Source of the DNA: a virus
Lineage: Duplodnaviria; Caudoviricetes
DNA: 64,000 nt
Virus record (IMG/VR): IMGVR_UViG_3300037041_001930
Strand: one strand, 5' to 3'
Shown: positions 3,909 through 40,704 of the stretch, piece by piece
Layout: every line of letters starts with the position of its first letter
Numbering within the stretch: the first letter of the stretch is position 1
Made by a program: the position numbers and the translations under genes
Notes under the pieces: model-generated
Databases searched by the model: none
The model's input: only the letters and a program-made list of their open reading frames with translations
Told to the model about the DNA's origin: nothing

Positions 3909-6900
3909 TTAGCGTGGGGATCGCGGAGGGGAAGTCGGTAGCGGCGGCGTGCCATAAGACCCCGTGGTCTTCAGGGTATCCCCGAAACCAGTGGCCTTGG
4001 CGAGAGCGGGGACATAGGACGTCGAGTTGGGATCCGAGACCCTGGAGCGATGAACACTGTCCAGGAATCCTGAGGAGGTATAGAAACCGGATAGCCTGGT
4101 CTGCCAGTCATTGTCGTTGTAGACCCCGAGGACCCCCCGCTGCATCACGGGCTGGAAATCGGGTTCGTCGTCATGGGCGTCGACATCCTTGACCCCCCAC
4201 TTCTGGAGATCCCCGGCGACCTTCTTGGTAATCCGGGTTCCCGGGGTGTAGTGGAGCACGGGTTCCTCGAGGTACTTGCCGACCCCAGAGTTCGGAGCAA
4301 CCCGCTTGGTCCCTGCTCTGGCCTTGTAGGCCCCGGCGACTGAGTTGTAAGACGCGACATCATCGACGATGTGGTCACCGACCCCGTTGGGATTCGTGAC
4401 CTTGACCCAGTTGATGAGCCCGGCGACCACGGTCTCGATGTTGCGACGATGAGTCTTGATCCCTGAGTTCGTCAGAGCCTCCTGGAGCATCTCGGCGTAT
4501 CTGCGGCGGGCTTCCCCGACTCCCTTGAGCCTGACGAGCTGCTCGGGGTGCGGGGCGCCATCGCTGATGTCATCCCCGGCTTCCAGGGCATCTCCGGGCT
4601 TCACCACGGGTTCGACACCGGGGTGGAGATAGTAGTCGCGGTCATCCACGGTGACGAACTGGCCACCCTGGGGTGCCTTGCGGATCCCCTTGACGACACC
4701 ATCGACCTCGGCGAGTGGACCTGACTCCGGGAATGTTTCAGGAGATTCTATAACACGGTTGAGGTACTCGAAACCAGTACGAAGATTCTTTTTAGCCCCG
4801 ATGGCACCAGACTGGTGCTTTGAGTTACTTACGATCATGCCATTACCCAGCACGAATAGGTGGTCGGGGTGAGCTACCTCGATATCATAGACATGAAGAT
4901 GCCCGGCATCTGTCCTGTCTTCCTGACGCCACCACTCTTCGCGAGTAACGCTCTCAACTGCTGTCTTTATTCGGTCGGCCGCTCTCTCACACTTCACGCC
5001 AAATAACCGTATGCTTCTATAAAAACGAATAACATCCCGATATTTAGTAATGCAGACGTTGTAATGTCGTCTCTTTTTCTTCGAGTTGGAGCTGCTCTTT
5101 GTCGCATAGATGCCGAACCTAATGCGCAGCAACTCCATTACGCCATCGATGAGTTTCTCACTGCTAGATGCAAATGAAAACCCCATACCATCTTTTTTCC
5201 GACTAAATACTGAGCCGTCGGTGACAAACAACCCGGCCAGGAGCTCACTCACTGCCTGGTTATCCCATTGATTCACAAACGAAGGTATTTCTTTTTCATG
5301 CGCGTATTTCCCATAAAGACCCTCATCTCTGAACCACTGCAAAATTGGATTTTCAGTGACCGTGCGCATCACACGTCCCGTGATTGTATCCCTCACGATA
5401 CGCCCGTACGACCGCTGGCTCAACCTGGTCAACGCATAATAAATGGTCTGCCCCCCGCATATATGGAACTGTAAATCATGTGGTGCTAAGTAGCCATTGA
5501 GGTGGTCAATCTGAGTCTGGTCTGCACAGGAAAGATGGATCCCGGTCACTGATTCAGTGTAGCATCCGTCCCCGAGAAGCACCCCGAGCAACTTAGCTCT
5601 CCAATCGTAGATCAGATGATTTTCGCTAGATAGCCCTCCCTCACAACGTATTCCAGATGCTTTACTCATGTCTCCAATCGCGCACACGGCATCACGGTGC
5701 ATTTCCCCATACTCAGAACTATAGTGAATGTGCGTTAAAACCTTGTGGGCAGGGGTGCATGTAATGGTATGAAACGTATGGTGGCTACAGCTCTGTCTGA
5801 AACGATAAGTAACACACGGCTGTACACCATTATCAAACGTATGGGTAACCTCCACTGGAAAGGTCTTTCCGGAGATGTCTGCCCCAAGCACGAACTCACC
5901 AGGCTTTATGGTCTCTATCTGACGTAAGCTAAAGTCAGCCATGCGAACAAGCGTACCCTTGGATAGACAATTCAGGGACCCCTGCGACAACGGGGCGCCT
6001 ATGCTCTGGGCAGCCGCGATACCTATCGCATCCCCAATGTTACTGAGTTCTGTTCTGTCTCTGCGCCCTGCTGCGATACGTGAGATCCCCCCGTCTTCAG
6101 TGGGCTCTGTCATCGGGCTGTGAACCAAGATGTCCTCAACCCCATCCTCTGACAGAGATTCCAGTATGTCTGGTGTAATTCTCTCTCCGGCTTTATGTGC
6201 GCCTGCATCCCTGGCAAGCACCGCGCCGATGTTATCAGTGTCGCTGACCTTGGATGGTAGCCCAACTGGTAGCCTGGTCATGGGAGCAGTGTCTTTATTC
6301 ACGACGATACGATGCGCTGCGTTAGCCAACTTCTTGCTTAAAAACCCTGCGTCAGCTGTCGCGAGCTTGACCTCTAGCATACCTTTTCTCTGCCCATAGG
6401 TCCCTGCCCAGTATTCCACGGGATCCAGGCCTTCACTGAGGCTGTGGAGAATCGGGATCGGAACGATTTCATTGCGGTGGTCATTGACGAGACCAGATGC
6501 CCCACGAATCGCGTTGTAGTCTGACATCTTCCCACGGGCACCAGATTTAACCTGAAACCAATATGGGTTGTTCTCGGATTCACCGGACTCCTCGAGCGCT
6601 TTCTGCATCTTCTCGACCATTGGAAACATGACATCGGTGATGGCTTGCTTCTTAGCATCGGGGTCGAGGTCAGAGGTCTCAATGGCCATGACCCTGGAGC
6701 GCGCACGCTGTATCAGCTTTTTCTCTTTGTCTGTTTTCCTGAGCCCGCTGAGACTGACGCTGACACCCTCGGTGAACGCGGCATCCCTGCCGACATCGTT
6801 CATGGTCTTGATGACGTCTTTGTAGCGATCGGGGTACTTCTCGGCGATGTGCCGCAGAATCGACATCAGCTCTTTTTTGTCGATGGCTTTACCCCGGATC

Positions 6901-6959
6901 TGGAGTTCCGGGGGAAGGCTGTCATTGAGCAAAAGGGTGCCGACCGTGGTGGGGTCCAT
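3909..6959 (-). CDS. rpoC: DNA-directed RNA polymerase beta' C-terminal subunit (rpoC2-like), intein-containing; 634 aa after splicing
   Basis: VKSGARG, bridge helix GLDPVEYWAGTYGQRKGMLEVKLATADAGFLSKKL, trigger loop AAQSIGAPLSQGSLN|SKH; N-terminus IDKKELMSIL...GVSVSL resembles the start of RpoC2. Confidence 0.93.
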   Translation of the reverse strand: MDPTTVGTLLLNDSLPPELQIRGKAIDKKELMSILRHIAEKYPDRYKDVIKTMNDVGRDAAFTEGVSVSLSGLRKTDKEKKLIQRARSRVMAIETSDLDPDAKKQAITDVMFPMVEKMQKALEESGESENNPYWFQVKSGARGKMSDYNAIRGASGLVNDHRNEIVPIPILHSLSEGLDPVEYWAGTYGQRKGMLEVKLATADAGFLSKKLANAAHRIVVNKDTAPMTRLPVGLPSKVSDTDNIGAVLARDAGAHKAGERITPDILESLSEDGVEDILVHSPMTEPTEDGGISRIAAGRRDRTELSNIGDAIGIAAAQSIGAPLSQGSLNCLSKGTLVRMADFSLRQIETIKPGEFVLGADISGKTFPVEVTHTFDNGVQPCVTYRFRQSCSHHTFHTITCTPAHKVLTHIHYSSEYGEMHRDAVCAIGDMSKASGIRCEGGLSSENHLIYDWRAKLLGVLLGDGCYTESVTGIHLSCADQTQIDHLNGYLAPHDLQFHICGGQTIYYALTRLSQRSYGRIVRDTITGRVMRTVTENPILQWFRDEGLYGKYAHEKEIPSFVNQWDNQAVSELLAGLFVTDGSVFSRKKDGMGFSFASSSEKLIDGVMELLRIRFGIYATKSSSNSKKKRRHYNVCITKYRDVIRFYRSIRLFGVKCERAADRIKTAVESVTREEWWRQEDRTDAGHLHVYDIEVAHPDHLFVLGNGMIVSNSKHQSGAIGAKKNLRTGFEYLNRVIESPETFPESGPLAEVDGVVKGIRKAPQGGQFVTVDDRDYYLHPGVEPVVKPGDALEAGDDISDGAPHPEQLVRLKGVGEARRRYAEMLQEALTNSGIKTHRRNIETVVAGLINWVKVTNPNGVGDHIVDDVASYNSVAGAYKARAGTKRVAPNSGVGKYLEEPVLHYTPGTRITKKVAGDLQKWGVKDVDAHDDEPDFQPVMQRGVLGVYNDNDWQTRLSGFYTSSGFLDSVHRSRVSDPNSTSYVPALAKATGFGDTLKTTGSYGTPPLPTSPPRSPR
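4824..5969 (-). mobile_element. Intein with LAGLIDADG homing endonuclease (382 aa) in the RNAP trigger loop
   Basis: Starts CLSKGTLVRMAD and ends GNGMIVSN with Ser+1; LLGVLLGDGCY and LLAGLFVTDGSV blocks; visibly more AT-rich than the flanks; removing it restores QGSLN-SKH. Confidence 0.93.
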
Positions 6960-9165: not shown

Positions 9166-10110
9166 TCATGGGGCAGGCTGGGCTTCCCCTTGTCTGCGGA
9201 TGGTATCGAAAACTACTTGTTGGGCCTTACGCCTCGCCGCTGCCTTGATCTTAGCCAATGCGATTTCCTGGGCTTTAATGGCAGCCGCGGAGCCGACTAT
9301 GCGCTCTACAGCTTTCACTTTTACCTGGGTCTCCGGGGATTTCCAGGCAGCTTTGGCGTCATCAACGGCCTCGCCTGCGATTTCCTTGCGGTCGTTCCAG
9401 ACATCAACGAGAGTCTTAAATATGGCTGAGTTCTTGAAATCGTCTTTATTCGAGTGCATCAGTGCCGCTGCTAAACGCTTGCCAGTATCCACTCGTGTCG
9501 GAGCAAAGACATTGCCTGCTCCAGTCATCGCGGCACGTGGGATGGTGTCACCGACGACATTGGGCAGCGTGAGCGCCTTCCGGGGCTGTGTGTAATCCTT
9601 GAATACGGGTTGTTCCTTGAATGTCCGCAGGAGCTCATCGAGGTAGACACGCCCCATCGCACGATTCACGGGGTTGGTGATATTCAGGGATCGCAAAGCA
9701 AACATGGGGAGATGCTCGGCGACCCGTGCAGGGGATACCGGCAACCCGGTTTCCTTCACGATCATGGCGGCCGCGGAATCATTGGCCCTACTGGCAGCAT
9801 CCCCGGCTGCGTATAGTCCGGTTCCCGCTGCGGTGGCCCCGAGCCCTGTGGCCAGGAACTTACCAGGTCTGGTGCCCATGCCCATGACAAGTCTGGGGAT
9901 CGAGGAGGGGCCCACCTTAGTGGTCCCCGTCCATTGCTGATACGGAGTCATCTGCCCCTTGGGGGTCATCACGGGTGTGTGGAATTTCTGCACGGCATCA
10001 GTGGCCTTGTTGACCACTGGTTTCACCGCGCTGACCCCGGACTTCGCCGCGTTCCATATCCCGCTAAGACTGGCAGCTGCGGTCTTCGAGATTACACAGG
10101 GCAGCCGCAT
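9166..10110 (-). CDS. Hypothetical protein with Gly-rich hydrophobic segment and N-terminal KTAA leader, 314 aa
   Basis: MRLPCVISKTAAAS...; FLATGLGATAAGTGLYAAG; TAATG overlap with the RNAP stop. Confidence 0.8.
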   Translation of the reverse strand: MRLPCVISKTAAASLSGIWNAAKSGVSAVKPVVNKATDAVQKFHTPVMTPKGQMTPYQQWTGTTKVGPSSIPRLVMGMGTRPGKFLATGLGATAAGTGLYAAGDAASRANDSAAAMIVKETGLPVSPARVAEHLPMFALRSLNITNPVNRAMGRVYLDELLRTFKEQPVFKDYTQPRKALTLPNVVGDTIPRAAMTGAGNVFAPTRVDTGKRLAAALMHSNKDDFKNSAIFKTLVDVWNDRKEIAGEAVDDAKAAWKSPETQVKVKAVERIVGSAAAIKAQEIALAKIKAAARRKAQQVVFDTIRRQGEAQPAP

Positions 10111-13100
10111 TACTTGGACCCCTTACCAGAGTTCAGGATAACCACGGGGTCGGCGACACCAAGATCCCCCCTGAGGTAGGCCTGGTAGGCGTCCTCCTTG
10201 GAGGCAAAGGTGCGCGGAGTCTTGTTCTTCTTGATACTGGTGGCCAAGTAGAGCCCGGCGAGATAATCCTTGTCAGGCTTGAGATGGACGTCGAAATCAG
10301 CGGGGTGCCAGAGGTTCTTCGAGGGCATCATCTTCTCGATGACATCCCTGACGGCGTCGTGATGCGAGGGCACATGCAAATTGATCTTGTCGCCGTCGAA
10401 GTCCAGGTTCGCCCCGGGTTCGACGACCTGGGGGACCCCAATGTTGTTGCCTCTGGAGAGCACGGGCCAGGCCCCAACATAGTTGTAGCGTTGCAGTGCA
10501 GGGGCGCGATCCCAGTACACGGGGCGAGTCTTCATCTCGTTCTGGAGCTCACGGAGTGCAGCGGGCTTCTGTTCCCGTACAGCCATGACGGCCTCACGAG
10601 CACTCCACCCCGATCGGACGAGACGCCGGATCACATAGGGGCGATACACGGTCCACGCCATGTCCTTGGGGATCGAGACCTGGTCCATGTCGAGTTCGGG
10701 GTCCGGGGTGGCGACACCACGACCCACGGTATCCACGGCCTGGCCGAGCACCTTGCGCTGGAATCTCGCAAACTTGGGGGAGTCGCCGACACCAATGGCG
10801 TTCTGGAGAAGCCCCTTGACGCCCTGTTCGACATGCTTGGGGTTAATGGGGGCACCTAGACCCGCGACGGCTTTGGCAGCCGCGTACATGGCACCGTATT
10901 CCTCACCGGCATCCCCAAAGGTCTTCTGGGCCTCCGTGTAATTCTTCCCGGACTCCATGAGATCATGGTAGAGATAGTTGGCGTCATGGATGATATCCAT
11001 TTTACCAGCACGTATAACAGGCCTGAACTTCGGAGGTATAACAGGGATCTTGGAGATCATGAGGTCTCCGGGATCGACGCCTGCGGACTTCAGACCACTG
11101 AGATAGTTGAGGGCACGGACATGGACATCACGGGATGACTTCGATCCCGTCTTGACCCCCTGGATGTGCATGGCGATCTCGCGTTCAACATTGATCCCCT
11201 TGAGCGCAGTCTCAATGGCTTCAGGCCCAGTCTTGTCGCCAATCTTCTCCTGCCCACTGAGGACATCGAGGAACCTCTGCTTGGTGAGGCCAAGTATCCG
11301 GATGATGGGTTCCTCCATCACGGGATTCGGGATCTTCTGGGGCAACTCGATCTTGGTGAAGTGGCGGCCATCGGCACCACCTGTCTTCGCGAGATCGAAG
11401 AGGCCGCCATCCTTGGGCTGCATGGTCTCGAAGTCAAAAGTCTCCGATGTCGAGACTGAGTGCTGGGCCAGGGCATCGGTGTCCGCATCAGTCATCGGGG
11501 CGAGCTTGAGCCTGCCCTGGTTCTCACGCACGTTGACCCCGGCACCCTTGAGGAGGGTGAGGAAGTGACCGTGTGCACCCGACGCCTCGGGCATCACGGG
11601 ATCCATACCAAGTTTCACGGAGCGCCAGTAGTCATCGTTGCGTTGCCCACGAATCAGCTTGGCGTCTTTCAAAACATTTGTGGCACCGGCACTTAGGAGG
11701 CATTGCACGCCAAGCAGAGCAATTTTCTTACTACCTGAGCTGCCACCTTTGGCAGGCGAATCATCGGATGTGTAACCCCCGGTGTCCCGTGCGGCGAGGC
11801 CAGACTCCGCGGTGTGATGTAACCGCATGAGATGCTGGACCCCAGTGAAGATGCCCTTGATCTTCCGCCCCGTCCTGGGATCAGTGACATCATCGAGTTC
11901 ATCGACACCGTTGGCCTTGGCCTCGTTCAACGCGAACTCACCGAGGTCATCGTGGTCAAATGATTTTAGAACGTATGGTTTCCCGGTTTTCTGGGCCACC
12001 TTACCTAGCAGGGTCTCCGCGAGCACTGATGGGTTCGCTCGGGAGATGACCCCAAGGGCATTAACGATGACATCCAAGGGCTTGCCATCCGCACCCACTG
12101 GCATCTCACCATCGGGAACTATCTGGGAGACGACACCTTTGTTGCCATAGCGTGCTGAGAGCTTGGAGCCCTCAGTCATGGGCTCCACACTGGAGATCAT
12201 GACCTTGATGCCCTTGCGGGTTCTCACGACATCTGTGACCTGACCGGGGGTCGAGTGATCCCAGGTCTGCGAGGCATCAGAGAACGCTGATCTCGCCGAT
12301 GGGGTGACGACCCCACCAGGTCTCGGGGTCTTCTTGCGCACCGCGAGGAGCACGGGATCCCCGGGCTGCACAATGGTGCCCTCTTTGATCACACCGTCGT
12401 CATCGATACCCGAGATCTGCTCAGGTTTGTACTTACCCTGGAAGATCGAGGAGTAATCCGCTTTCTTCGTGGAATGAATGTTCTTATCGAGTTCAAGTTC
12501 ATGTTTGTAGGCGTGCTGTGAGGACAGCCGGCGAGCCGCGGATTCCGAGATGACAAAACCATCTTCATATGTTCTGCCGCTTCCAACCATATAACCAACA
12601 TTTAAGTTTGTACCCAGTGTTGCCTGGCCTTTGTCATCCGTGAAGTTCGATTTCGCGAGGACATCCCCGGGTTTGAAACTATCACCTTCGCGAACCAATG
12701 GTGTGTTGTGCAGACTTGTTTTACGCGCCAGGGGGTAGTTGTTATACAACTCATGTCGTTCCTTCTTGCCCCCAGCGTAGACGACATCGATGTGGTCTGG
12801 TGTCACGGCGACAACACGCCCGGGTGCCTTGGCCTTCACGGCGCCCATCCAGGTACCCATGGAGTCATGAATCGAGGTGCCGTCGGGATTCGCGGCTTGA
12901 ACTAAAGGGGCCTCAGGCGCTTGTAGCGGGAGGGCCTGTGACGTCATTCTTGCCCCCATCAGGGTTCTCTGTGACTTCGCACCTTGGGTCATCGGGACCA
13001 TATTGGTGAGCCTGGAGAACATCGAGGACCCATGGGGGAGTTCGTAGTCGACCTCTGCGGCGGGCTTCCACTTAATGTCTTCGCCATCGAGAACGCGTAC

Positions 13101-14657
13101 CATCGGTGGCAATGGCTTCCCGAGACCGTGCATGCCCACGGACGCCGAGAGCTCGGGATCCCTGGAGATGTCATCCATGGTGACCACGTGGTCCACATAC
13201 TTTCCATCATCACCAGGCAGGGGTACCTTGTAGAACTCGCGCTTCGCCGCTTTCGCGAACTCACCAGGAAACGCAATGGGCTTCTGGGAGGCCTGAAGTG
13301 CAGACAGCGTGACTTCCTCACCCTTGCGTGATCGCACCTTGAAATAAAGGCGACCATCGGAACCCTTGAGGGCGCCATCGGTGAGACGCATGTCGACACC
13401 GATGTTCTGGCCTTCAGGTGCCCGGATGGGATCAATGATACCGAAGTAGCTGGGCTGGACACCGCGTGCTGAACGCGGTACGGCTTGGTTGGACGAAATC
13501 CCGCCCTCGCCGAGGCGCGTTATGGTCTGACGGGCATCCATGATCTCCAGGGGATTCGTGTCTTCCACTGAGCTCATGAGTCCACTTTGAAACACGCCAT
13601 CCACTGCTGGGTTCAGGAGTCCTGGGGATACGTTTCCAAGATTGCCCTCACGGGTCGCCCGCCACAGCAATTTTCGCATGGCGTCACTGCCACGACTCAA
13701 GCGTTCCTCGAAGAAGTCCTCGGGGCCATGGAAACTCTGAAAGGCCTGAGAATCCCGGACATCGTCGGGGACCTCATCACGACTCCGCTTCAACATCTTC
13801 GTAGTCGCATTCAACATGGTGTCGAGATTGAAATTCTTGTACTTGGCTCCCAGCGTGGTCTCAGTGGTTTCCTCGTCGAGCTCGGCTCTTCCAAGGATCT
13901 CATGGAGTTTGTCTTTGAGGAGTTCGGTTGCCGTGTCTTGGTCACCTCGACGCCCCATCTTGGCCACGATCTTACGAGCCTCCTGGGCGTCGTGCCCACC
14001 AGGTGGGCGCCAGTTCGCCTTGAATAGATCATCCCCCCAGGCTTCCCTGATGGTTGCATCGGGGACCCCCATGGATCTCAGCAAGGGGTACAGCCGGGTT
14101 CCACTCTGGCCCACGTTCAACTTGAACACGCCTGTGGAGGGCTCGAGCTGGAGATCGAAGCCCCGACCACTGCCTGGCTTCGGATTCACCTGAGCCTTGA
14201 CGTCCCCGTTCTGCTGGCGGAGCACGTAGACCCCGGGGCGCAGGCGCTGCTGGTTCTTGGCGGCCCAAATGGTGCCCCCGCGAACAAAGATGCCACGTGG
14301 GGTCAAATGGGGGACATGCGCAAGGGTGGTCTCGGTTTCATCGACGACTGCACCGGATGCCTTGTCGACCAAGCGAACCCTGCCCTTGATGGCGCGCTGC
14401 ATGCTCTGACGAGACATCAGCGCTTTCTTCTCATCACTGAGGCTGGGGTTGTAGTCCTGGGCGTAATCGGAGTCTGCGATCTCAACCCTGTACTTCTCAT
14501 TCTCGACAGGCTTCAGGGCACGGACCCCGCGCAGTGCATTCGAGTAGATGGCGTCGCGTTGTCCGCTGACGTCATCAAAACTTCTATGGGTCACCGGGGC
14601 TACGGGACTCGGGCTACCCACGGGGGTATCAAAGGCGCCTTTGAGATCGCCTATCAT
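10110..14657 (-). CDS. rpoB: DNA-directed RNA polymerase beta::beta'-N fusion subunit, 1515 aa
   Basis: beta motifs RLRPGVY, NPLE..TRLGEGG, PEGQNIGV, RMTSQALPL, GSKLSARYGNKGVVS, DVIVNALGVISRAN; then beta' motifs DGGLFD, IPVIPPKFRP, RKVLGQAVDTVGRGV, RAPALQR and catalytic NLDFDGD (10389-10409). Confidence 0.95.
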   Translation of the reverse strand: MIGDLKGAFDTPVGSPSPVAPVTHRSFDDVSGQRDAIYSNALRGVRALKPVENEKYRVEIADSDYAQDYNPSLSDEKKALMSRQSMQRAIKGRVRLVDKASGAVVDETETTLAHVPHLTPRGIFVRGGTIWAAKNQQRLRPGVYVLRQQNGDVKAQVNPKPGSGRGFDLQLEPSTGVFKLNVGQSGTRLYPLLRSMGVPDATIREAWGDDLFKANWRPPGGHDAQEARKIVAKMGRRGDQDTATELLKDKLHEILGRAELDEETTETTLGAKYKNFNLDTMLNATTKMLKRSRDEVPDDVRDSQAFQSFHGPEDFFEERLSRGSDAMRKLLWRATREGNLGNVSPGLLNPAVDGVFQSGLMSSVEDTNPLEIMDARQTITRLGEGGISSNQAVPRSARGVQPSYFGIIDPIRAPEGQNIGVDMRLTDGALKGSDGRLYFKVRSRKGEEVTLSALQASQKPIAFPGEFAKAAKREFYKVPLPGDDGKYVDHVVTMDDISRDPELSASVGMHGLGKPLPPMVRVLDGEDIKWKPAAEVDYELPHGSSMFSRLTNMVPMTQGAKSQRTLMGARMTSQALPLQAPEAPLVQAANPDGTSIHDSMGTWMGAVKAKAPGRVVAVTPDHIDVVYAGGKKERHELYNNYPLARKTSLHNTPLVREGDSFKPGDVLAKSNFTDDKGQATLGTNLNVGYMVGSGRTYEDGFVISESAARRLSSQHAYKHELELDKNIHSTKKADYSSIFQGKYKPEQISGIDDDGVIKEGTIVQPGDPVLLAVRKKTPRPGGVVTPSARSAFSDASQTWDHSTPGQVTDVVRTRKGIKVMISSVEPMTEGSKLSARYGNKGVVSQIVPDGEMPVGADGKPLDVIVNALGVISRANPSVLAETLLGKVAQKTGKPYVLKSFDHDDLGEFALNEAKANGVDELDDVTDPRTGRKIKGIFTGVQHLMRLHHTAESGLAARDTGGYTSDDSPAKGGSSGSKKIALLGVQCLLSAGATNVLKDAKLIRGQRNDDYWRSVKLGMDPVMPEASGAHGHFLTLLKGAGVNVRENQGRLKLAPMTDADTDALAQHSVSTSETFDFETMQPKDGGLFDLAKTGGADGRHFTKIELPQKIPNPVMEEPIIRILGLTKQRFLDVLSGQEKIGDKTGPEAIETALKGINVEREIAMHIQGVKTGSKSSRDVHVRALNYLSGLKSAGVDPGDLMISKIPVIPPKFRPVIRAGKMDIIHDANYLYHDLMESGKNYTEAQKTFGDAGEEYGAMYAAAKAVAGLGAPINPKHVEQGVKGLLQNAIGVGDSPKFARFQRKVLGQAVDTVGRGVATPDPELDMDQVSIPKDMAWTVYRPYVIRRLVRSGWSAREAVMAVREQKPAALRELQNEMKTRPVYWDRAPALQRYNYVGAWPVLSRGNNIGVPQVVEPGANLDFDGDKINLHVPSHHDAVRDVIEKMMPSKNLWHPADFDVHLKPDKDYLAGLYLATSIKKNKTPRTFASKEDAYQAYLRGDLGVADPVVILNSGKGSK

Positions 14658-25350: not shown

Positions 25351-26214
25351 TCACTGAGCGTCAAGCCCTGCTATGTAGCCGTCGAGGTCGCTGCCATTGA
25401 TCTCGGTGAGTAAAACACGCTCCCAGAGCACACGGACTCCATTGAGATTCCGCTTGGCTTCTGGGGTGTCACCCTCGAGGTCGGCATAGGGAACGAAGGC
25501 ATCAAGGGTGCCCGGATCAGTCTCCTGTGTCGAGACTATCCAGTTGTGGTTCCCTGCCGTATTGGTGTCGAAAGGATGCAACAGTGTGAAGTCCGCGAAG
25601 AGGAGGCTGCGAGGTGCCACCCCAGCGGCGACGAGATCCTGGAGCATGGTCTTCATGGGGTCAATGTTGGGGCGACCAATGATATTGATCCAGATGTTCC
25701 GAGTAATCGCGGCACAGGCCTTGAAGAAGGCGACCTGATCCCCGGTGATCAGAGACTTGCCATCATAGGCGTCGTGGAGGATAAAATCGTAGGGGTAATT
25801 GTCACGCGGGCTCCCCGCGATGAGGGGGATCATGGCGAGGGCATCAGCGGTGAATACCCGAAGACGGCCGGACTCGATGGCAGCATTGACCTCAGGGAAT
25901 CCTTGCTTGCACAAATGGACTGCCACGGGGTCAATTTCGATGACATCGATGCGGACCCCAGGGAAGTTGGTGAGCACGGCGACGGCACCGGCACCACTGC
26001 CGAGACCAATCATGAGACCTCTCCCCCTTGGGTTCATCGCTGCGGCGGCAAGCCACCCCAGGGTGTACGGGGATGCCGAGACGACACCGGGGCCGCCGTG
26101 CTTAGACGGGGGATCCAGGAACGCGGCACCCTGGACCTGCCCATTGATTCGGAGCTGGCGTGCGCCATTGACGTCGATGACATCGACGACGCCGAACATA
26201 CCCGGGGCCATCAT
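25351..26214 (-). CDS. Spermidine-synthase-like class I SAM-dependent transferase
   Basis: LMIGLGSGAG (motif I), IDVIEIDPVAV, FTADAL, YDFILHDAYDG. Confidence 0.8.
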   Translation of the reverse strand: MMAPGMFGVVDVIDVNGARQLRINGQVQGAAFLDPPSKHGGPGVVSASPYTLGWLAAAAMNPRGRGLMIGLGSGAGAVAVLTNFPGVRIDVIEIDPVAVHLCKQGFPEVNAAIESGRLRVFTADALAMIPLIAGSPRDNYPYDFILHDAYDGKSLITGDQVAFFKACAAITRNIWINIIGRPNIDPMKTMLQDLVAAGVAPRSLLFADFTLLHPFDTNTAGNHNWIVSTQETDPGTLDAFVPYADLEGDTPEAKRNLNGVRVLWERVLLTEINGSDLDGYIAGLDAQ

Positions 26215-35344: not shown

Positions 35345-35602
35345 CTATTCAGGTTCCTCAACTGAAACCGCGGACAAGGGATCAGGCGACAGGGCTTCCA
35401 TGGTCCACCCGGTGAGCCCAGACATCTTGCGGAGCAAGTCGATCGTGGGGGTTCTCCGGTTCGCCTCGATGAGACTGAGGTAGGAGTCACTGACCCCCAG
35501 AGCTGCTGCCATCTTGTCCTGGGCGAGCCCGCATTCATGGCGGGCCTGCTTCCAGGCCTCACCGAGATTTCGGGGCTGGGGAGGCTTGGGCTTGTTAGTC
35601 AT
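35345..35602 (-). CDS. XRE/Cro-family helix-turn-helix transcriptional regulator
   Basis: LGEAWKQARHECGLAQDKMAAALGVSDSYLSLIEANRRTPTIDLLRKMS, a canonical HTH_3 pattern. Confidence 0.92.
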   Translation of the reverse strand: MTNKPKPPQPRNLGEAWKQARHECGLAQDKMAAALGVSDSYLSLIEANRRTPTIDLLRKMSGLTGWTMEALSPDPLSAVSVEEPE

Positions 35603-36396: not shown

Positions 36397-36439
36397 CAAA
36401 ACGAGTCGAGGTCACGTCCCCGGGGAGACGTGACCTCGA
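36397..36439 (-). terminator. Intrinsic terminator after 36459..36938
   Basis: 13-bp inverted repeat tcgaggtcacgtc (36406-36418) / gacgtgacctcga (36427-36439) followed on the minus strand by CTCGTTTTGT. Confidence 0.85.
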
Positions 36440-36458: not shown

Positions 36459-36938
36459 TTAGGGAATGAAGGCGATGGCTTCGACGGCGACATCCCAACC
36501 CACGGTTTCAGCGGCGGCGCCGGTGACCTTGAGCTTGAGGACATTGGTGTCGTTGATCAAGGCGACGACATAGGCGGCTTCACCGATGTGATCAACCACA
36601 GTGGGGGAGCCGGATTCCAACAGGGTGACTGTTGAACCCACGACCTTGACGAGGTAGCGACGGATCTCGGCGGCGACTTTGGCACCATCGGATTTGCGAG
36701 CCACGGCTTTGACTTCGATCAGGCTGACGCTGCCATCGGCGAAGATGCCTGCGGGGAGGCGTTGGTCACCGTTCTGAAAGAGTTCAGTGGCGGTGGCGTT
36801 GGTTGTGGTGCCGAGGAAGTTGAATTTCTCGACATTACGGTTTTCCAGGGCACGCTTGGTCTTGGCGCGGCCTGTACTGCGTTCGCGGGAATCCACGGGA
36901 AGGCGGAGAGCGCCGGCTTCATTGATACCTTTGGTCAT
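36459..36938 (-). CDS. Hypothetical beta-rich protein, 159 aa (possibly structural)
   Basis: CCAGGAG RBS; flanked by terminators on both sides. Confidence 0.8.
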   Translation of the reverse strand: MTKGINEAGALRLPVDSRERSTGRAKTKRALENRNVEKFNFLGTTTNATATELFQNGDQRLPAGIFADGSVSLIEVKAVARKSDGAKVAAEIRRYLVKVVGSTVTLLESGSPTVVDHIGEAAYVVALINDTNVLKLKVTGAAAETVGWDVAVEAIAFIP

Positions 36939-37032
36939 GGGAAATCTCCTGGAAGAGTTGACGAGGACGTCGGTGAAGTCCCTAGAGTAAGTGGGATCTC
37001 AGGTTGTGGAAGAGGGGTTCGGCGTCGCCAGC

Positions 37033-37064
37033 AATAAAAGGGCCCTCAGGTTTCCCTGAGGGCC
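37033..37064 (-). terminator. Intrinsic terminator
   Basis: Minus strand GGCCCTCAGG-GAAA-CCTGAGGGCC-CTTTTATT (10-bp stem, GNRA loop, U tract). Confidence 0.9.
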
Positions 37065-37136
37065 GCTCCGACACCGAAGTGTCCACCAATCTATCACTGT
37101 CGCCCAATTCACCCACCCCTGAGGACCTGGGCGACC
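37033..37136 (-). ncRNA. Candidate ~100-nt structured small RNA or attenuator leader
   Basis: Own promoter at 37142-37169; hairpin GTCGCCCA/TGGGCGAC, C(UUCG)G hairpin 37070-37083, terminator 37041-37064. Confidence 0.5.
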
Positions 37137-37141
37137 CCAGA

Positions 37142-37169
37142 AATCTACCATGGCTTGGGGATCCGACAA
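37142..37169 (-). promoter_or_regulatory. Sigma70-like promoter TTGTCG-N16-TAGATT with extended -10 (TGn)
   Basis: Directly after the nrdJ stop; predicted +1 near 37135-37136 coincides with the first hairpin. Confidence 0.55.
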
Positions 37170-37178
37170 GGCCTACTA

Positions 37179-40100
37179 TCAGGCGTGTTGTAAGGTGCAG
37201 GCTCCACCCGCACATGCCATCTCAGGTTGGGTACCCTTGGTGCCATCGTGTTCCTCGACCATCAGGGAGTAGTCGACATCACGCCAGCTCCGGGTCAAAC
37301 GTTCCCAGAGGTGGAGGTTGTTGACTTCCTTGAGGCAATAGGTCATCTGCTTCAGCGCAGCGTCACGGTCAGCCTTGCGCTCATAAGTCATCTCTACTGG
37401 GCACTGGAAGTAATTCTCTGCGAACTTCCTGGCCCTACGTATCCAATCCTTCTTGAGTTCATGGACGTGCTCATAGGCCTCGCGGATGGCATCAGGGAGT
37501 GCATCGGGATCCCCAGGATATGGAACACCATTGGCGAGAACGGCGGCTTCACCAAGCCCCATCACGGTATCACATGCCAACCAGAGATTGTTACCAAAGG
37601 CGTGGAGTCCATCTACGATGAGACCAGATGCAAAGAAGGCGCCGCGACCATAGCGCTCCAGGATCTCACTTTCCGTGCGGACCTCGCAGAACGGGGCCTG
37701 GGGGTAATCGAGATCCCCTGATGTCCCCAGGATGCTGACCCCCGTGAAGGACTCACGGTTATCGTAGATGTACCGTGCCGCGGCCTCCTCTTGGGTCTGC
37801 CGGATCGTGATCGTGTTGGAGACATTGTGGTGCAGCCAGGGCTTCACTGCTCTCGCGGGGACACTGCCAGCGGCGACCCAGTTGTCCTGGGTGAGTTTGA
37901 CGTACTCGAGCTGCTTGAGCCCATTGACCTCGCGCCGCGTCAGGGCCTCATCGGAGGCCTCGATGCAGAACGTGATCACCGCGGTGTTACCATTGGGCTC
38001 CCACACCGAGCGTTCAATGGCATCGGGATTGTGGACCTTGAAGTATTGGAAGGGGGCCTCGTTGATGTTGGCCTGGGCCCTACGGAAGTATCTCTTGGCG
38101 TGCTGGGCATGAATACCGCTAGAGGTCCCGAGCAGGCAAGACGTCGAACCCGCGGGTTTAACACATGTCGCCCGTGCAGTTGGCCGGATACCCAGACGAG
38201 GTGCGAGATGCGCGTTGACATCGAGGATGAGCTGGGCCAGGGCGCGTTGCTTCTGGGGATCAAAAGACTGTGTGGGGTTGTCCATCATCCCGGTCATGGA
38301 GACCCCGAGCAGGGCCTCACGCTTCGCAATGCACTCGCTGACATTGCCGAGGTAGTCGAACTTGGTGTACCCGGCCTGGAGTGTGCCCAGGATCGCCGCA
38401 GCGGTACACGCGAGACCCCAGTCCTTATCGGTGCGGCACGCCTTCGCGTTGACTTCACAGAGGTTGCATTGCTTGGTGAGTACGTTGTTGAACACACAAC
38501 AATGTGTGTCCGGTTCCTCTAAGCAGTAGGTATCACCTTTTCCTAAGAAATTTACTGACCGGATTATCTGGTGCTTGCCCTTGCAGCGTGGGGTGTACCC
38601 CTTAGATGTATCCAAGCGATGACACGGTATCTTCTGGCACTCAGTAATCTGGATATACCATGATGCCTCAGTCCGTTCCCCAAAGTTGGTGGCGGCATCA
38701 TTATGAAGATTGACGGAGCACAGGATTCCAACTCGGCTTAATAGAAGCTGGGCGTCGCGACAACGTGACTCGGTACCGTAAATCCGGATACCATTGCCAG
38801 CCTGGGAACCATCGGCATCAGCCCACCCCGCGATGAATGATAAGATGCTATCCGATGACCACGCGTGTAGATCACGCAAGGCGTTCGGATCTCTTTTCAA
38901 TCGTGTAGCAAAACCAACGTCGATATCAAAAACGATATCAACTGAGTCGACCCCGTATCCTGGTTTCCTGACACGCGGGCCCCGCTTGCCATCTAGTGGT
39001 AGATCAATTTTAGGACCATATAGAGTTGCCTTCGCACGCCCTTTACCGTGAAGAGGTTCCGTGTGACCATCCCCAAGTAGGAAACCCATCTCATAGGCAC
39101 AGGGTTCATCGAGCCCTGGCTGCTCCTGAAAACCACTACGGGGAACATGGATGGGGTGATCCGAGAATTGTAATAGTTTACCAGTGGGCACCTCAGAGTA
39201 TCCCTTGCCAAATCTATCTTTTACCAACCAGACATGATCCTCAGTGCAGTCGAGAAAACTGCCATCGCTGAGCTCAACTCGATAGAGCTTCCGATTACTG
39301 CCAGTGGAAAACGGTTTAGCCACGCACCACCTGGTGCCATTCCATATCTTTATCTGCTTACCGACTACATCCTTGATAGCGTGGATGCCGTCCTCAGTCA
39401 TCAGAAGCGTATCCCCGCCGACGCAGAATGCCCAACCACTGAGCTCATCGTCTTGGTTGACTATTGCGGCGTGGGTGGATCCATCATTGAAATCGACGTC
39501 AACGAGCCGACGCCCATCCTGCAGTAACTGGGTACGTGATGCGGGGTCGTTCAGGATCTCCTTGAGATCCTTCCGAGAAATCGCGGGGTACATCCCAGTT
39601 TCCACGCAGGGGTTCACCATGAGCTCCGTGCTATCCGACCACACGAACCCGGGCTCCCCGTACTGGCGACGCGCCAACATGAAGATGTCATGGAAGGCTT
39701 CCCAGGAGGTCTCACCACGGATCAGCATCGCCGAGTTATTAGAACGCGCGCGCTGTGGGTTGTCCTGCATCCAGTTCCCAGTCTTCGCATTCATCATCTC
39801 GTGGTCGTCGACACTGAACAAGCAGATCGTGGCACTGCGGCGAACCCCGCCGGCGAGGACGGCATCCGAGGCGTGCATGATGATGTCATAGACGTCGATG
39901 GGGCGGAGACGGCAGTCCTCACCATGGCAGCGAGTCAGCGCGGCATCGAGGACCCCTCTGATCTTCTCTAGGGATGCTGACAGCGGCCCAGGCCCCGGGG
40001 CCTTGCCGGCACCCGTGCTCAGACTCGAGCCCTGGTTACGGATCCGGGAGTAATCGAAGCTGACATGACTGCCCATGTAATCAGAGAAGCATCCGGGGTG

Positions 40101-40649
40101 TTGGAAGGACACCTGGGAATCATTGCCTGGTGCGGTTTCTTCCGCGAACTCGTTCATACCACTGCCAAGACATCCATAGGACGCCAGGAGGACACCAAGG
40201 GCATCCGCCCAGCCTTCAACAGAGTCGGCAACCGTGAACACCTTGATCTGATGTTTATCCACGGCGATTAACTTGGGCAGCTTGGCGACGTGGTGGAGTT
40301 GAACCGAGAACCCGGTGCCGCAGCCACAGAGCAGGAGATACAAGCACTCCTGGAAGAAGCGGGGGCGATCCGCGTAGGACCCCGAGCAGTTGAACGCACG
40401 GGCTTCCTTCCTCAGGATAGGGGAACCTCCGAACTGAAGAGCTCTCTGGGAGCCTAGAACCAAACCAGCCTTCATGGCTTCCAGACAGGTCTTCAACTCA
40501 GCTTCGATATCAAACCCTTTGTACTTCGTGCGGTGCATGTCGATGACGCGTTCAAAACTCTCACTTGGTATCTCTCGGCGATTCAGTTCAGGGATAAAGC
40601 ATCCATAAGACGCTGCGAACTTATAGGCTGCTAGGGATTGCGTTGTCAT
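37179..40649 (-). CDS. nrdJ: Class II (adenosylcobalamin-dependent, RTPR-like) ribonucleotide reductase with intein; ~837 aa after splicing
   Basis: GSQRALQFGG, FNCS, LLCGCGTGFSV, GGVRRSA, NPCVE, CNLCE, TCVKPAGSTS, C-terminal CAGGAC; start moved to ATG 40649 (GGAG RBS). Confidence 0.93.
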   Translation of the reverse strand: MTTQSLAAYKFAASYGCFIPELNRREIPSESFERVIDMHRTKYKGFDIEAELKTCLEAMKAGLVLGSQRALQFGGSPILRKEARAFNCSGSYADRPRFFQECLYLLLCGCGTGFSVQLHHVAKLPKLIAVDKHQIKVFTVADSVEGWADALGVLLASYGCLGSGMNEFAEETAPGNDSQVSFQHPGCFSDYMGSHVSFDYSRIRNQGSSLSTGAGKAPGPGPLSASLEKIRGVLDAALTRCHGEDCRLRPIDVYDIIMHASDAVLAGGVRRSATICLFSVDDHEMMNAKTGNWMQDNPQRARSNNSAMLIRGETSWEAFHDIFMLARRQYGEPGFVWSDSTELMVNPCVETGMYPAISRKDLKEILNDPASRTQLLQDGRRLVDVDFNDGSTHAAIVNQDDELSGWAFCVGGDTLLMTEDGIHAIKDVVGKQIKIWNGTRWCVAKPFSTGSNRKLYRVELSDGSFLDCTEDHVWLVKDRFGKGYSEVPTGKLLQFSDHPIHVPRSGFQEQPGLDEPCAYEMGFLLGDGHTEPLHGKGRAKATLYGPKIDLPLDGKRGPRVRKPGYGVDSVDIVFDIDVGFATRLKRDPNALRDLHAWSSDSILSFIAGWADADGSQAGNGIRIYGTESRCRDAQLLLSRVGILCSVNLHNDAATNFGERTEASWYIQITECQKIPCHRLDTSKGYTPRCKGKHQIIRSVNFLGKGDTYCLEEPDTHCCVFNNVLTKQCNLCEVNAKACRTDKDWGLACTAAAILGTLQAGYTKFDYLGNVSECIAKREALLGVSMTGMMDNPTQSFDPQKQRALAQLILDVNAHLAPRLGIRPTARATCVKPAGSTSCLLGTSSGIHAQHAKRYFRRAQANINEAPFQYFKVHNPDAIERSVWEPNGNTAVITFCIEASDEALTRREVNGLKQLEYVKLTQDNWVAAGSVPARAVKPWLHHNVSNTITIRQTQEEAAARYIYDNRESFTGVSILGTSGDLDYPQAPFCEVRTESEILERYGRGAFFASGLIVDGLHAFGNNLWLACDTVMGLGEAAVLANGVPYPGDPDALPDAIREAYEHVHELKKDWIRRARKFAENYFQCPVEMTYERKADRDAALKQMTYCLKEVNNLHLWERLTRSWRDVDYSLMVEEHDGTKGTQPEMACAGGACTLQHA
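38469..39425 (-). mobile_element. Intein with LAGLIDADG endonuclease (319 aa), C-terminal Gln
   Basis: Starts CVGGDTLLMT and ends VFNNVLTKQ before Cys+1 of CNLCE; EMGFLLGDG and FIAGWADADGS blocks; AT-richer than the flanks. Confidence 0.92.
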
Positions 40650-40704
40650 ATGACACTCCATGTAGTCGTTGGTTTTTTCGTCACAGGTGCTACATCCTGT
40701 GGGG

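Follow-up and report, generated by a model that had tools for sequence, protein, structure and literature searches.

Analysis of the window, a 64,000-nucleotide stretch of viral DNA, showed that its minus strand encodes an RNA element of three hairpins (P1, P2 and P3) between a ribonucleotide reductase gene and a gene for a 159-aa protein. This minus-strand RNA is very probably a real structure under selection. The explanation favoured here, with a probability of roughly 0.45, is a lineage-specific small RNA of ~100 nt that would have its own promoter, share the terminator of the reductase and act via the tip of P1. The window comes from a 171.6-kb IMG/VR virus record (G000, 79% complete), while a close relative (G001) is a complete 216-kb genome with terminal repeats. 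The source is an uncultured freshwater phage of ~200 kb, with nearly all of its genes on the minus strand. The element sits in the 240-nt gap 36939-37178, and the features of the locus, in window coordinates, are as follows:

37179..40661, minus strand: class II RTPR-like ribonucleotide reductase gene with intein, 1160 aa (context)
37164..37169, minus strand: -35-like hexamer TTGTCG (TTGGCG in four variants), TTG and C invariant in the eight intergenic variants
37142..37150, minus strand: extended -10-like TGgTAGATT (TGgTATATT in L012), with TG at 37150-37149 and TAGATT at 37147-37142
37099..37135, minus strand: P1, tip-bearing 12-bp helix with one mismatch, in which 37135-37124 pairs with 37110-37099 around a 13-nt tip
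37109..37125, minus strand: invariant 17-nt P1 tip UCCUCAGGGGUGGGUGA (alignment columns 18-34)
37084..37098, minus strand: single-stranded, semi-conserved linker between P1 and P2, GAUUGGUG, with a second -10-like TGaTAGATT at 37096-37088
37070..37083, minus strand: P2, 5-bp hairpin GACAC-UUCG-GUGUC, with other loops and stem sequences in relatives
37033..37064, minus strand: P3, intrinsic terminator with 10-bp stem, GAAA loop and U tract (terminator scan)
36957..36978, minus strand: variant promoter-like motif CTTCAC-N10-GTCAAC, lying past P3, with the ATG of the 159-aa gene 40 nt further on
36459..36938, minus strand: 159-aa gene of no family, with a disordered basic N-terminus and a beta-sandwich
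36393-36377: variant promoter-like motif CTTTAC-N5-GTCAAC, after the next terminator and directly before a 248-aa gene

Every feature that the first-pass annotation had listed here was found in place on the minus strand. The 8-bp stem (GTCGCCCA/TGGGCGAC) that it drew around 21 nt is present and is really part of the 12-bp P1 helix with one mismatch. P3 consists of GGCCCUCAGG-GAAA-CCUGAGGGCC at 37064-37041, followed by the U tract CUUUUAUU at 37040-33, and 8 of its 10 bp are GC pairs.

The 159-aa protein has only seven 90% clusters among 5.8 billion proteins, and the contigs of these clusters together with two IMG/VR relatives formed the comparison set. Within this set the gap occurs in eight different forms and the element in seven, the latter aligned as A4 (window, L001, L002, L008, L012, L014 and L018). 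Pairwise identity was 55-95% for the element and 80-98% for the flanking 159-aa proteins; the element changes faster than its neighbours. It is also a mosaic, with P1/P2 types and P3 types differently combined among the variants: L008 has the P1/P2 of L002 and the P3 of L001, while L014 has the P1/P2 of the window and the P3 of L001. Such combinations point to recombination between co-occurring phage strains within about 110 nt. Covariation events are few because there are just seven closely related variants, some of them recombinant. The element is single-copy, with one match each in the record and in G001. No cultured phage relative was matched when the locus was compared with 50,697 phage records by BLASTn, and a search with the covariance model found no element next to the 47 reductase homologues that share 47% identity or less.

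Folding of 116 nt gave a minimum free energy (MFE) of -57.2 kcal/mol (z -3.87) and folding of 103 nt gave -55.1 kcal/mol (z -5.54), with no match among 200 shuffles in either case. The minus-strand fold was 12 kcal/mol better than the plus-strand fold, and the G-U pairs in P1 and P2 fit the minus strand only. Each of the seven variants, folded alone, gives P1, P2 and P3. RNAalifold on an unfitted MAFFT alignment recovered inner P1, P2 and P3 with 8 doubly changed pairs. A covariance model was built and the variants were realigned to it; in this alignment, which is thus fitted to the structure, the share of paired cells is 95.8%, with both sides changed in 10 of the 31 pairs. As controls, none of 500 shuffles was as good, and slid partners were 31-44% paired with 0-3 pairs doubly changed.

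By helix, the pairs changed on both sides were the four outer pairs of P1, two pairs of P2 and four pairs of P3. All cells (100%) are paired in P2 and in P3, and the latter occurs in three stem versions with the GAAA loop and the U tract invariant. L018 has its P2 hairpin wholly replaced and an outer P1 of different sequence, and the hairpins are still kept. Covariation across related phages, which had been named as a check of the first description, therefore supports all three hairpins by compensatory changes. Indels of 1, 2, 3, 4 and 6 nt among the variants rule out a coding reading. The small ORFs across the element do not keep their frame among the variants and were rejected. A hairpin in the promoter-like stretch and a further helix around P1 (P0) were also discarded, with no consistent compensation for either.

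The element had been described as belonging to no recognised Rfam family, and the database search agrees: no family was found at the gathering threshold. At permissive thresholds the best sub-threshold match scored 16.8 bits where the gathering score is 39, and it lay mostly over the terminator. A tRNA/tmRNA search of the element found none.

In the linker between P1 and P2, TGaTAGATT (37096-37088) echoes the extended -10 TGgTAGATT (37150-37142), and a -10-like hexamer of some kind (GATGAT, AATGAT, TATAGT) is found in the linker of every variant. This word could be a sigma-dependent pause site or could have arisen by chance in an A/U-rich linker.

The tip of P1 comprises 17 consecutive columns that are identical in all seven variants, while 50 of 117 columns are invariant overall. 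Two drawings fit it: an open loop of 13 nt, or a short helix of C-G/U-G/C-G/A-U pairs that has a bulged U and is closed by a GGGG loop; this possible inner helix would have 4-6 bp. Since the tip never varies, covariation cannot choose between the open loop and the GGGG-capped helix. A tip that stays the same while its scaffold changes fast suggests sequence-specific recognition.

The 17-mer occurs once in the window, and its matches in IMG/VR were just in two close relatives. The idea that it mimics a host RNA was rejected: its 41 GTDB matches are scattered across phyla without further parts of the element, and are thus attributed to chance. Six metagenome matches likewise lacked the element, and a composite-pattern search found none. 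On both strands of the 171.6-kb record the best non-self duplex of the tip reached -30.4 kcal/mol, compared with -26.4 to -28.9 kcal/mol for shuffled loops, and no phage target stood out against these controls, which counts against the small RNA. The complete 216-kb relative held no complement of the tip with 3 or fewer mismatches.

The promoter-like site begins 10 nt past the stop codon of the reductase and has a 16-nt spacer between the -35-like hexamer and the TG-extended -10. Nine sigma70-like sites scoring at least 9.5 were found on both strands of the 171.6-kb record, this one included. From the end of the -10 to the base of P1 there are 6 nt in 7/7 variants; these 6 nt vary in sequence and never in length, and the spacing holds even in L018, where P1 is rebuilt. 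Among the eight variants the promoter stretch has five variable positions, none of them at a consensus-matching base, and the one change within the -10 (G to T, giving TATATT) moves it toward consensus. Positions 37142-37172 are conserved as well as coding sequence, with no supported pairing. A conserved sigma70-like site, one of only nine and held at a fixed 6 nt from P1, argues for the small RNA. Against it, such sites are not enriched in the other 79 intergenic regions of the phage (2 observed, 3.2 in shuffles). A proposed second promoter class was dropped, as the word TGGTAGAT recurs at chance level and one of its matches is a gene start.

One 375-nt contig from one freshwater-sediment metatranscriptome (run X14) spans 36796-37173. 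Its start lies 38 nt ahead of the predicted +1, and it runs across P3 into the 159-aa gene, so that at least some transcripts start earlier and read through P3, an observation that weighs against the small RNA. Contigs give no ends, strand or level, and this one is therefore taken as a hint of longer or read-through transcripts. In the same RNA run the neighbouring 1 kb of the reductase gene is not covered by any contig, although DNA runs do cover it; these RNA contigs, all from one study, do not fix a start site. A second query of RNA runs, with the element alone, returned the same run only, with a small share. RNA contigs also bridge both P3 and the next terminator (36439-36406).

The phage encodes a bacterial-type multisubunit RNA polymerase, with beta and beta-prime fused and split over two proteins. 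Neither a sigma factor nor a T7-type RNA polymerase was found in searches of the phage. A polymerase of its own and the absence of sigma-factor matches speak against a small RNA made from a sigma70-like promoter. The polymerase genes and the copies of a directional 18-bp motif, CTTGAC-N5-GTAAAC(C), are located as follows:

10110-14657: 1515-aa polymerase protein, beta and the first part of beta-prime (Rpb2 domains 3 and 6, Rpb1 domains 1 and 2)
3909-6959: 1016-aa polymerase protein, the rest of beta-prime (Rpb1 domain 5 and a LAGLIDADG insert)
40721-40705, 56162, 58513, 51824 (plus strand) and 25372 (weaker): motif copies in the window
G000:C1 112350, 122018 and 138437: motif copies elsewhere in the record

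Seven copies of the motif are present in the record and six exact copies in G001, while the reversed-pattern control gave 0. Every copy is co-oriented with a gene start 1-100 nt downstream, and the motif has no -10 partner at sigma70 spacing. It is likely to be a promoter, either one used by the phage's own polymerase or one that depends on a factor. A relaxed pattern gave just two extra matches genome-wide, both conserved in all relatives. From the variant motif that follows P3, the 159-aa gene probably has its own promoter downstream of the terminator, and this weakens the reading of the element as an attenuator.

The upstream gene was identified as a class II ribonucleotide reductase from PHROG 367 (3.5e-80), TIGR02505 (2.8e-43) and PDB 1L1L, with a match to an intein N-terminal region, and the earlier placement of the element behind nrdJ was essentially right. 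The reductase has the phage-type motif at 40721-40705 and no terminator before P3, where its transcript would end. Other terminators in the genome lie close behind stop codons without such an insert.

The downstream gene had been called isolated, and it does have terminators on both flanks. A very strong 15-bp hairpin terminator lies directly behind it at 36406-36439, which makes the 159-aa gene a one-gene unit. Two further units of promoter, small gene and strong terminator were seen in the record (G000:C1 112350 to 111880 and 122018 to 121610). Residues 1-29 of the 159-aa protein are disordered and Arg/Lys-rich. Its moderately confident structure model (pLDDT 62.6) matches C-terminal domains of tail fibres and tailspikes at TM 0.4-0.55, a hint of likeness in the modelled fold and not an assignment. 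A conserved gene for an 85-aa HTH_3 (Cro/C1-type) regulator (35345-35602) is present in all relatives; in the window it stands two genes downstream of the element, within the virion-gene block.

In another phage (L006:589-702) the gene for a 160-aa homologue of the 159-aa protein (60% identical) is preceded by two unrelated small genes and a plain terminator (GGCTCC-loop-GGAGCC), and neither the P1/P2 element nor the CTTCAC/GTCAAC motif was found upstream of it. That this homologue does without the element, and that the 159-aa gene in the window has its own promoter-like motif after P3, are points in favour of an independent small RNA.

The favoured explanation would run as follows. The minus-strand module of P1, P2 and P3 is most likely released as a small RNA of ~100 nt, with a predicted start at ~37135 from the conserved sigma70-like extended -10 promoter and a predicted end at the same terminator as the reductase mRNA. 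P3 would be an ordinary, somewhat leaky terminator and not a switch. The invariant 17-nt tip would be the active part, read sequence-specifically by a protein or by an RNA, most likely from the host, while the outer P1 stem, P2 and P3 would provide scaffold and protection. The comparison covers seven close variants, some recombinant, and both ends of the RNA are predicted from sequence.

The enterobacterial DapZ and MicL are 3'-UTR small RNAs that have their own promoter and share a terminator with the upstream mRNA; they are Hfq-dependent and have known mRNA targets. Like them, the element would have a promoter at or just after the coding end, a length of ~100 nt, a shared intrinsic terminator and a conserved short region, but this region is a hairpin tip and not clearly a single-stranded seed.

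Giant phages offer a precedent for short terminated transcripts. In 201phi2-1 and phiKZ, transcription that stops just past a start site yields small RNAs (PMC11512511), which favours the small RNA here. The examples are sRNA005 of 201phi2-1 and the small RNA before the tail gene gp182 of phiKZ, which are promoter-proximal and prematurely terminated; one of them is conserved ahead of a tail gene, and their ends were mapped by cappable sequencing (PMC11512511). Compared by layout only, the element would likewise be a short, structured, terminated transcript directly before a virion-type gene, belongs to a large phage with its own multisubunit RNA polymerase, and is conserved in position and fold among relatives. 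Start to termination within 250 nt before a virion gene is present at the sequence level, with predicted ends. The element differs in that its ends are inferred and not mapped, that it lies in the 3' region of the upstream gene, and that the downstream gene seems to have its own promoter motif after the terminator.

The same arrangement was considered as a cis-acting leader of the virion-gene block, in which polymerase would read P1/P2 and then pass P3 and the terminator at 36439-36406, either by reading them directly, in the manner of the HK022 put RNA, which suppresses downstream terminators in cis via the zinc-binding domain of polymerase beta', or by way of a phage factor bound to them, on the model of lambda N at nut. 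This is unlikely, and the evidence is divided. A promoter-like site is followed by two hairpins over 66 nt (37135-37070), a terminator 5 nt further on and co-oriented genes; RNA contigs bridge both terminators; and no canonical promoter motif occurs downstream until position 25372 of the window. Variant promoter-like motifs nevertheless follow each terminator, and as they stand directly before the 159-aa and 248-aa genes, read-through is not needed. Compensatory change keeps P3 strong, and the 60% homologue of the 159-aa gene does without the element.

An invariant hairpin tip would suit contact with a protein or with polymerase, and likeness to the put RNA adds to this case. That RNA has ~70 nt and two stem-loops just past a sigma70 promoter, its adjacent stems forming a V with a triplex (PMC9378689). 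The element resembles it in that two stem-loops, here over 66 nt, come right after a sigma70-like site, in the terminators downstream and in an internal -10-like hexamer, found in the linker of every variant as in putL. The likeness is in layout only: the put stems adjoin each other, whereas P1 and P2 are separated by a 15-nt linker and are followed 5 nt on by a strong terminator. Either the host or the phage enzyme may transcribe the region. That P1-P2 would reprogram polymerase, possibly the phage's own, to ignore P3 and the next terminator, and so license a virion block of ~11 kb, is a distinctly long shot; if true, this would be a giant-phage counterpart of put, its invariant tip making the contact with polymerase or a cofactor.

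The late region of lambda (PR'-6S RNA-tR') is a further model for a leader, with a constitutive promoter, a short terminated transcript and late genes under Q antitermination; its leader has no conserved structured hairpins. The element would share with the PR' leader the order of promoter, short terminated transcript and co-directional genes. No Q-type antiterminator was found in either genome: the Q families PF06530 and PF03589 were absent from G000 and the complete G001, while positive controls were found, and this too stands against a cis leader. No -10-like pause element was present in the first ~25 nt, the only -10-like hexamer being at +43 to +48 (37093-37088).

It is similarly improbable that the element lacks a promoter and is simply the 3' UTR of a reductase mRNA terminated by P3. 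P1/P2 would then protect the 3' end or bind a factor that controls the stability of the reductase mRNA, and a stable processed 3' fragment may accumulate. Three observations fit: a phage-type promoter motif stands before the reductase gene at 40721-40705, and no terminator intervenes up to P3; the RNA contig reaches 37173, which lies 6 nt beyond the reductase stop codon, ahead of the putative start; and sigma70-like promoters are otherwise unused in the genome of a phage with its own polymerase. The conservation of 37142-37172, as high as that of coding sequence without supported pairing, is left unexplained, as is the fixed 6-nt distance from the -10 to P1. Reductase genes of distant phages (47% identity or less) lack the element, and, as a weak objection, the RNA run has no contig over 1 kb of the reductase gene.

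The first-pass annotation had also proposed a terminator/antiterminator switch, in which a copy of the terminator arm in the P1 loop pairs with the 3' arm of P3, blocks termination and so regulates the 159-aa gene. In the window the copy, GUCCUCAGG at 37126-37118, can form 10 bp with the 3' arm (-19.8 kcal/mol), near the -21.2 kcal/mol of the terminator stem. In the other six variants the pairing is interrupted by mismatches and reaches only -14.1, -12.9, -11.6 and -10.2 kcal/mol (the last value in three variants), while in the full set the terminator stem itself ranges only from -21.2 to -22.7 kcal/mol. The loop is invariant and the arms of P3 co-vary solely with each other, so the alternative pairing decays across variants. 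Folds with either P3 arm blocked were 16-24 kcal/mol worse than the MFE and unlike among variants.

Terminator/antiterminator riboswitches and attenuators likewise consist of a structured leader, an intrinsic terminator and then a gene; unlike them, the element has no conserved alternative pairing or known aptamer, and its energy gap is large. A switch is thus highly improbable, with a pairing that falls from -19.8 kcal/mol in the window to -10.2 kcal/mol in relatives while the terminator arms compensate each other, unconserved blocked-arm folds, a loop held within a stable P1, and no match to a riboswitch family or to a ligand- or factor-binding domain of a described class. Attenuator control of 36459..36938 is doubtful as well, given the promoter-like motif after P3 and the 60%-identical homologue without the element. 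Of the original alternatives, small RNA or attenuator, what stood was a conserved, structured, terminator-ended RNA of no curated family with a conserved promoter-like site; the switch did not. A switch seen in a single genome can vanish when relatives are compared.

Support from compensatory evolution is rare among non-coding RNAs of uncultured large phages. The element has a clean three-hairpin design, and its invariant tip suggests a specific partner. It lies at a transcription-unit boundary in a phage with its own RNA polymerase. It is a candidate new RNA family, and it bears on how transcription is divided between the host and the phage polymerase.
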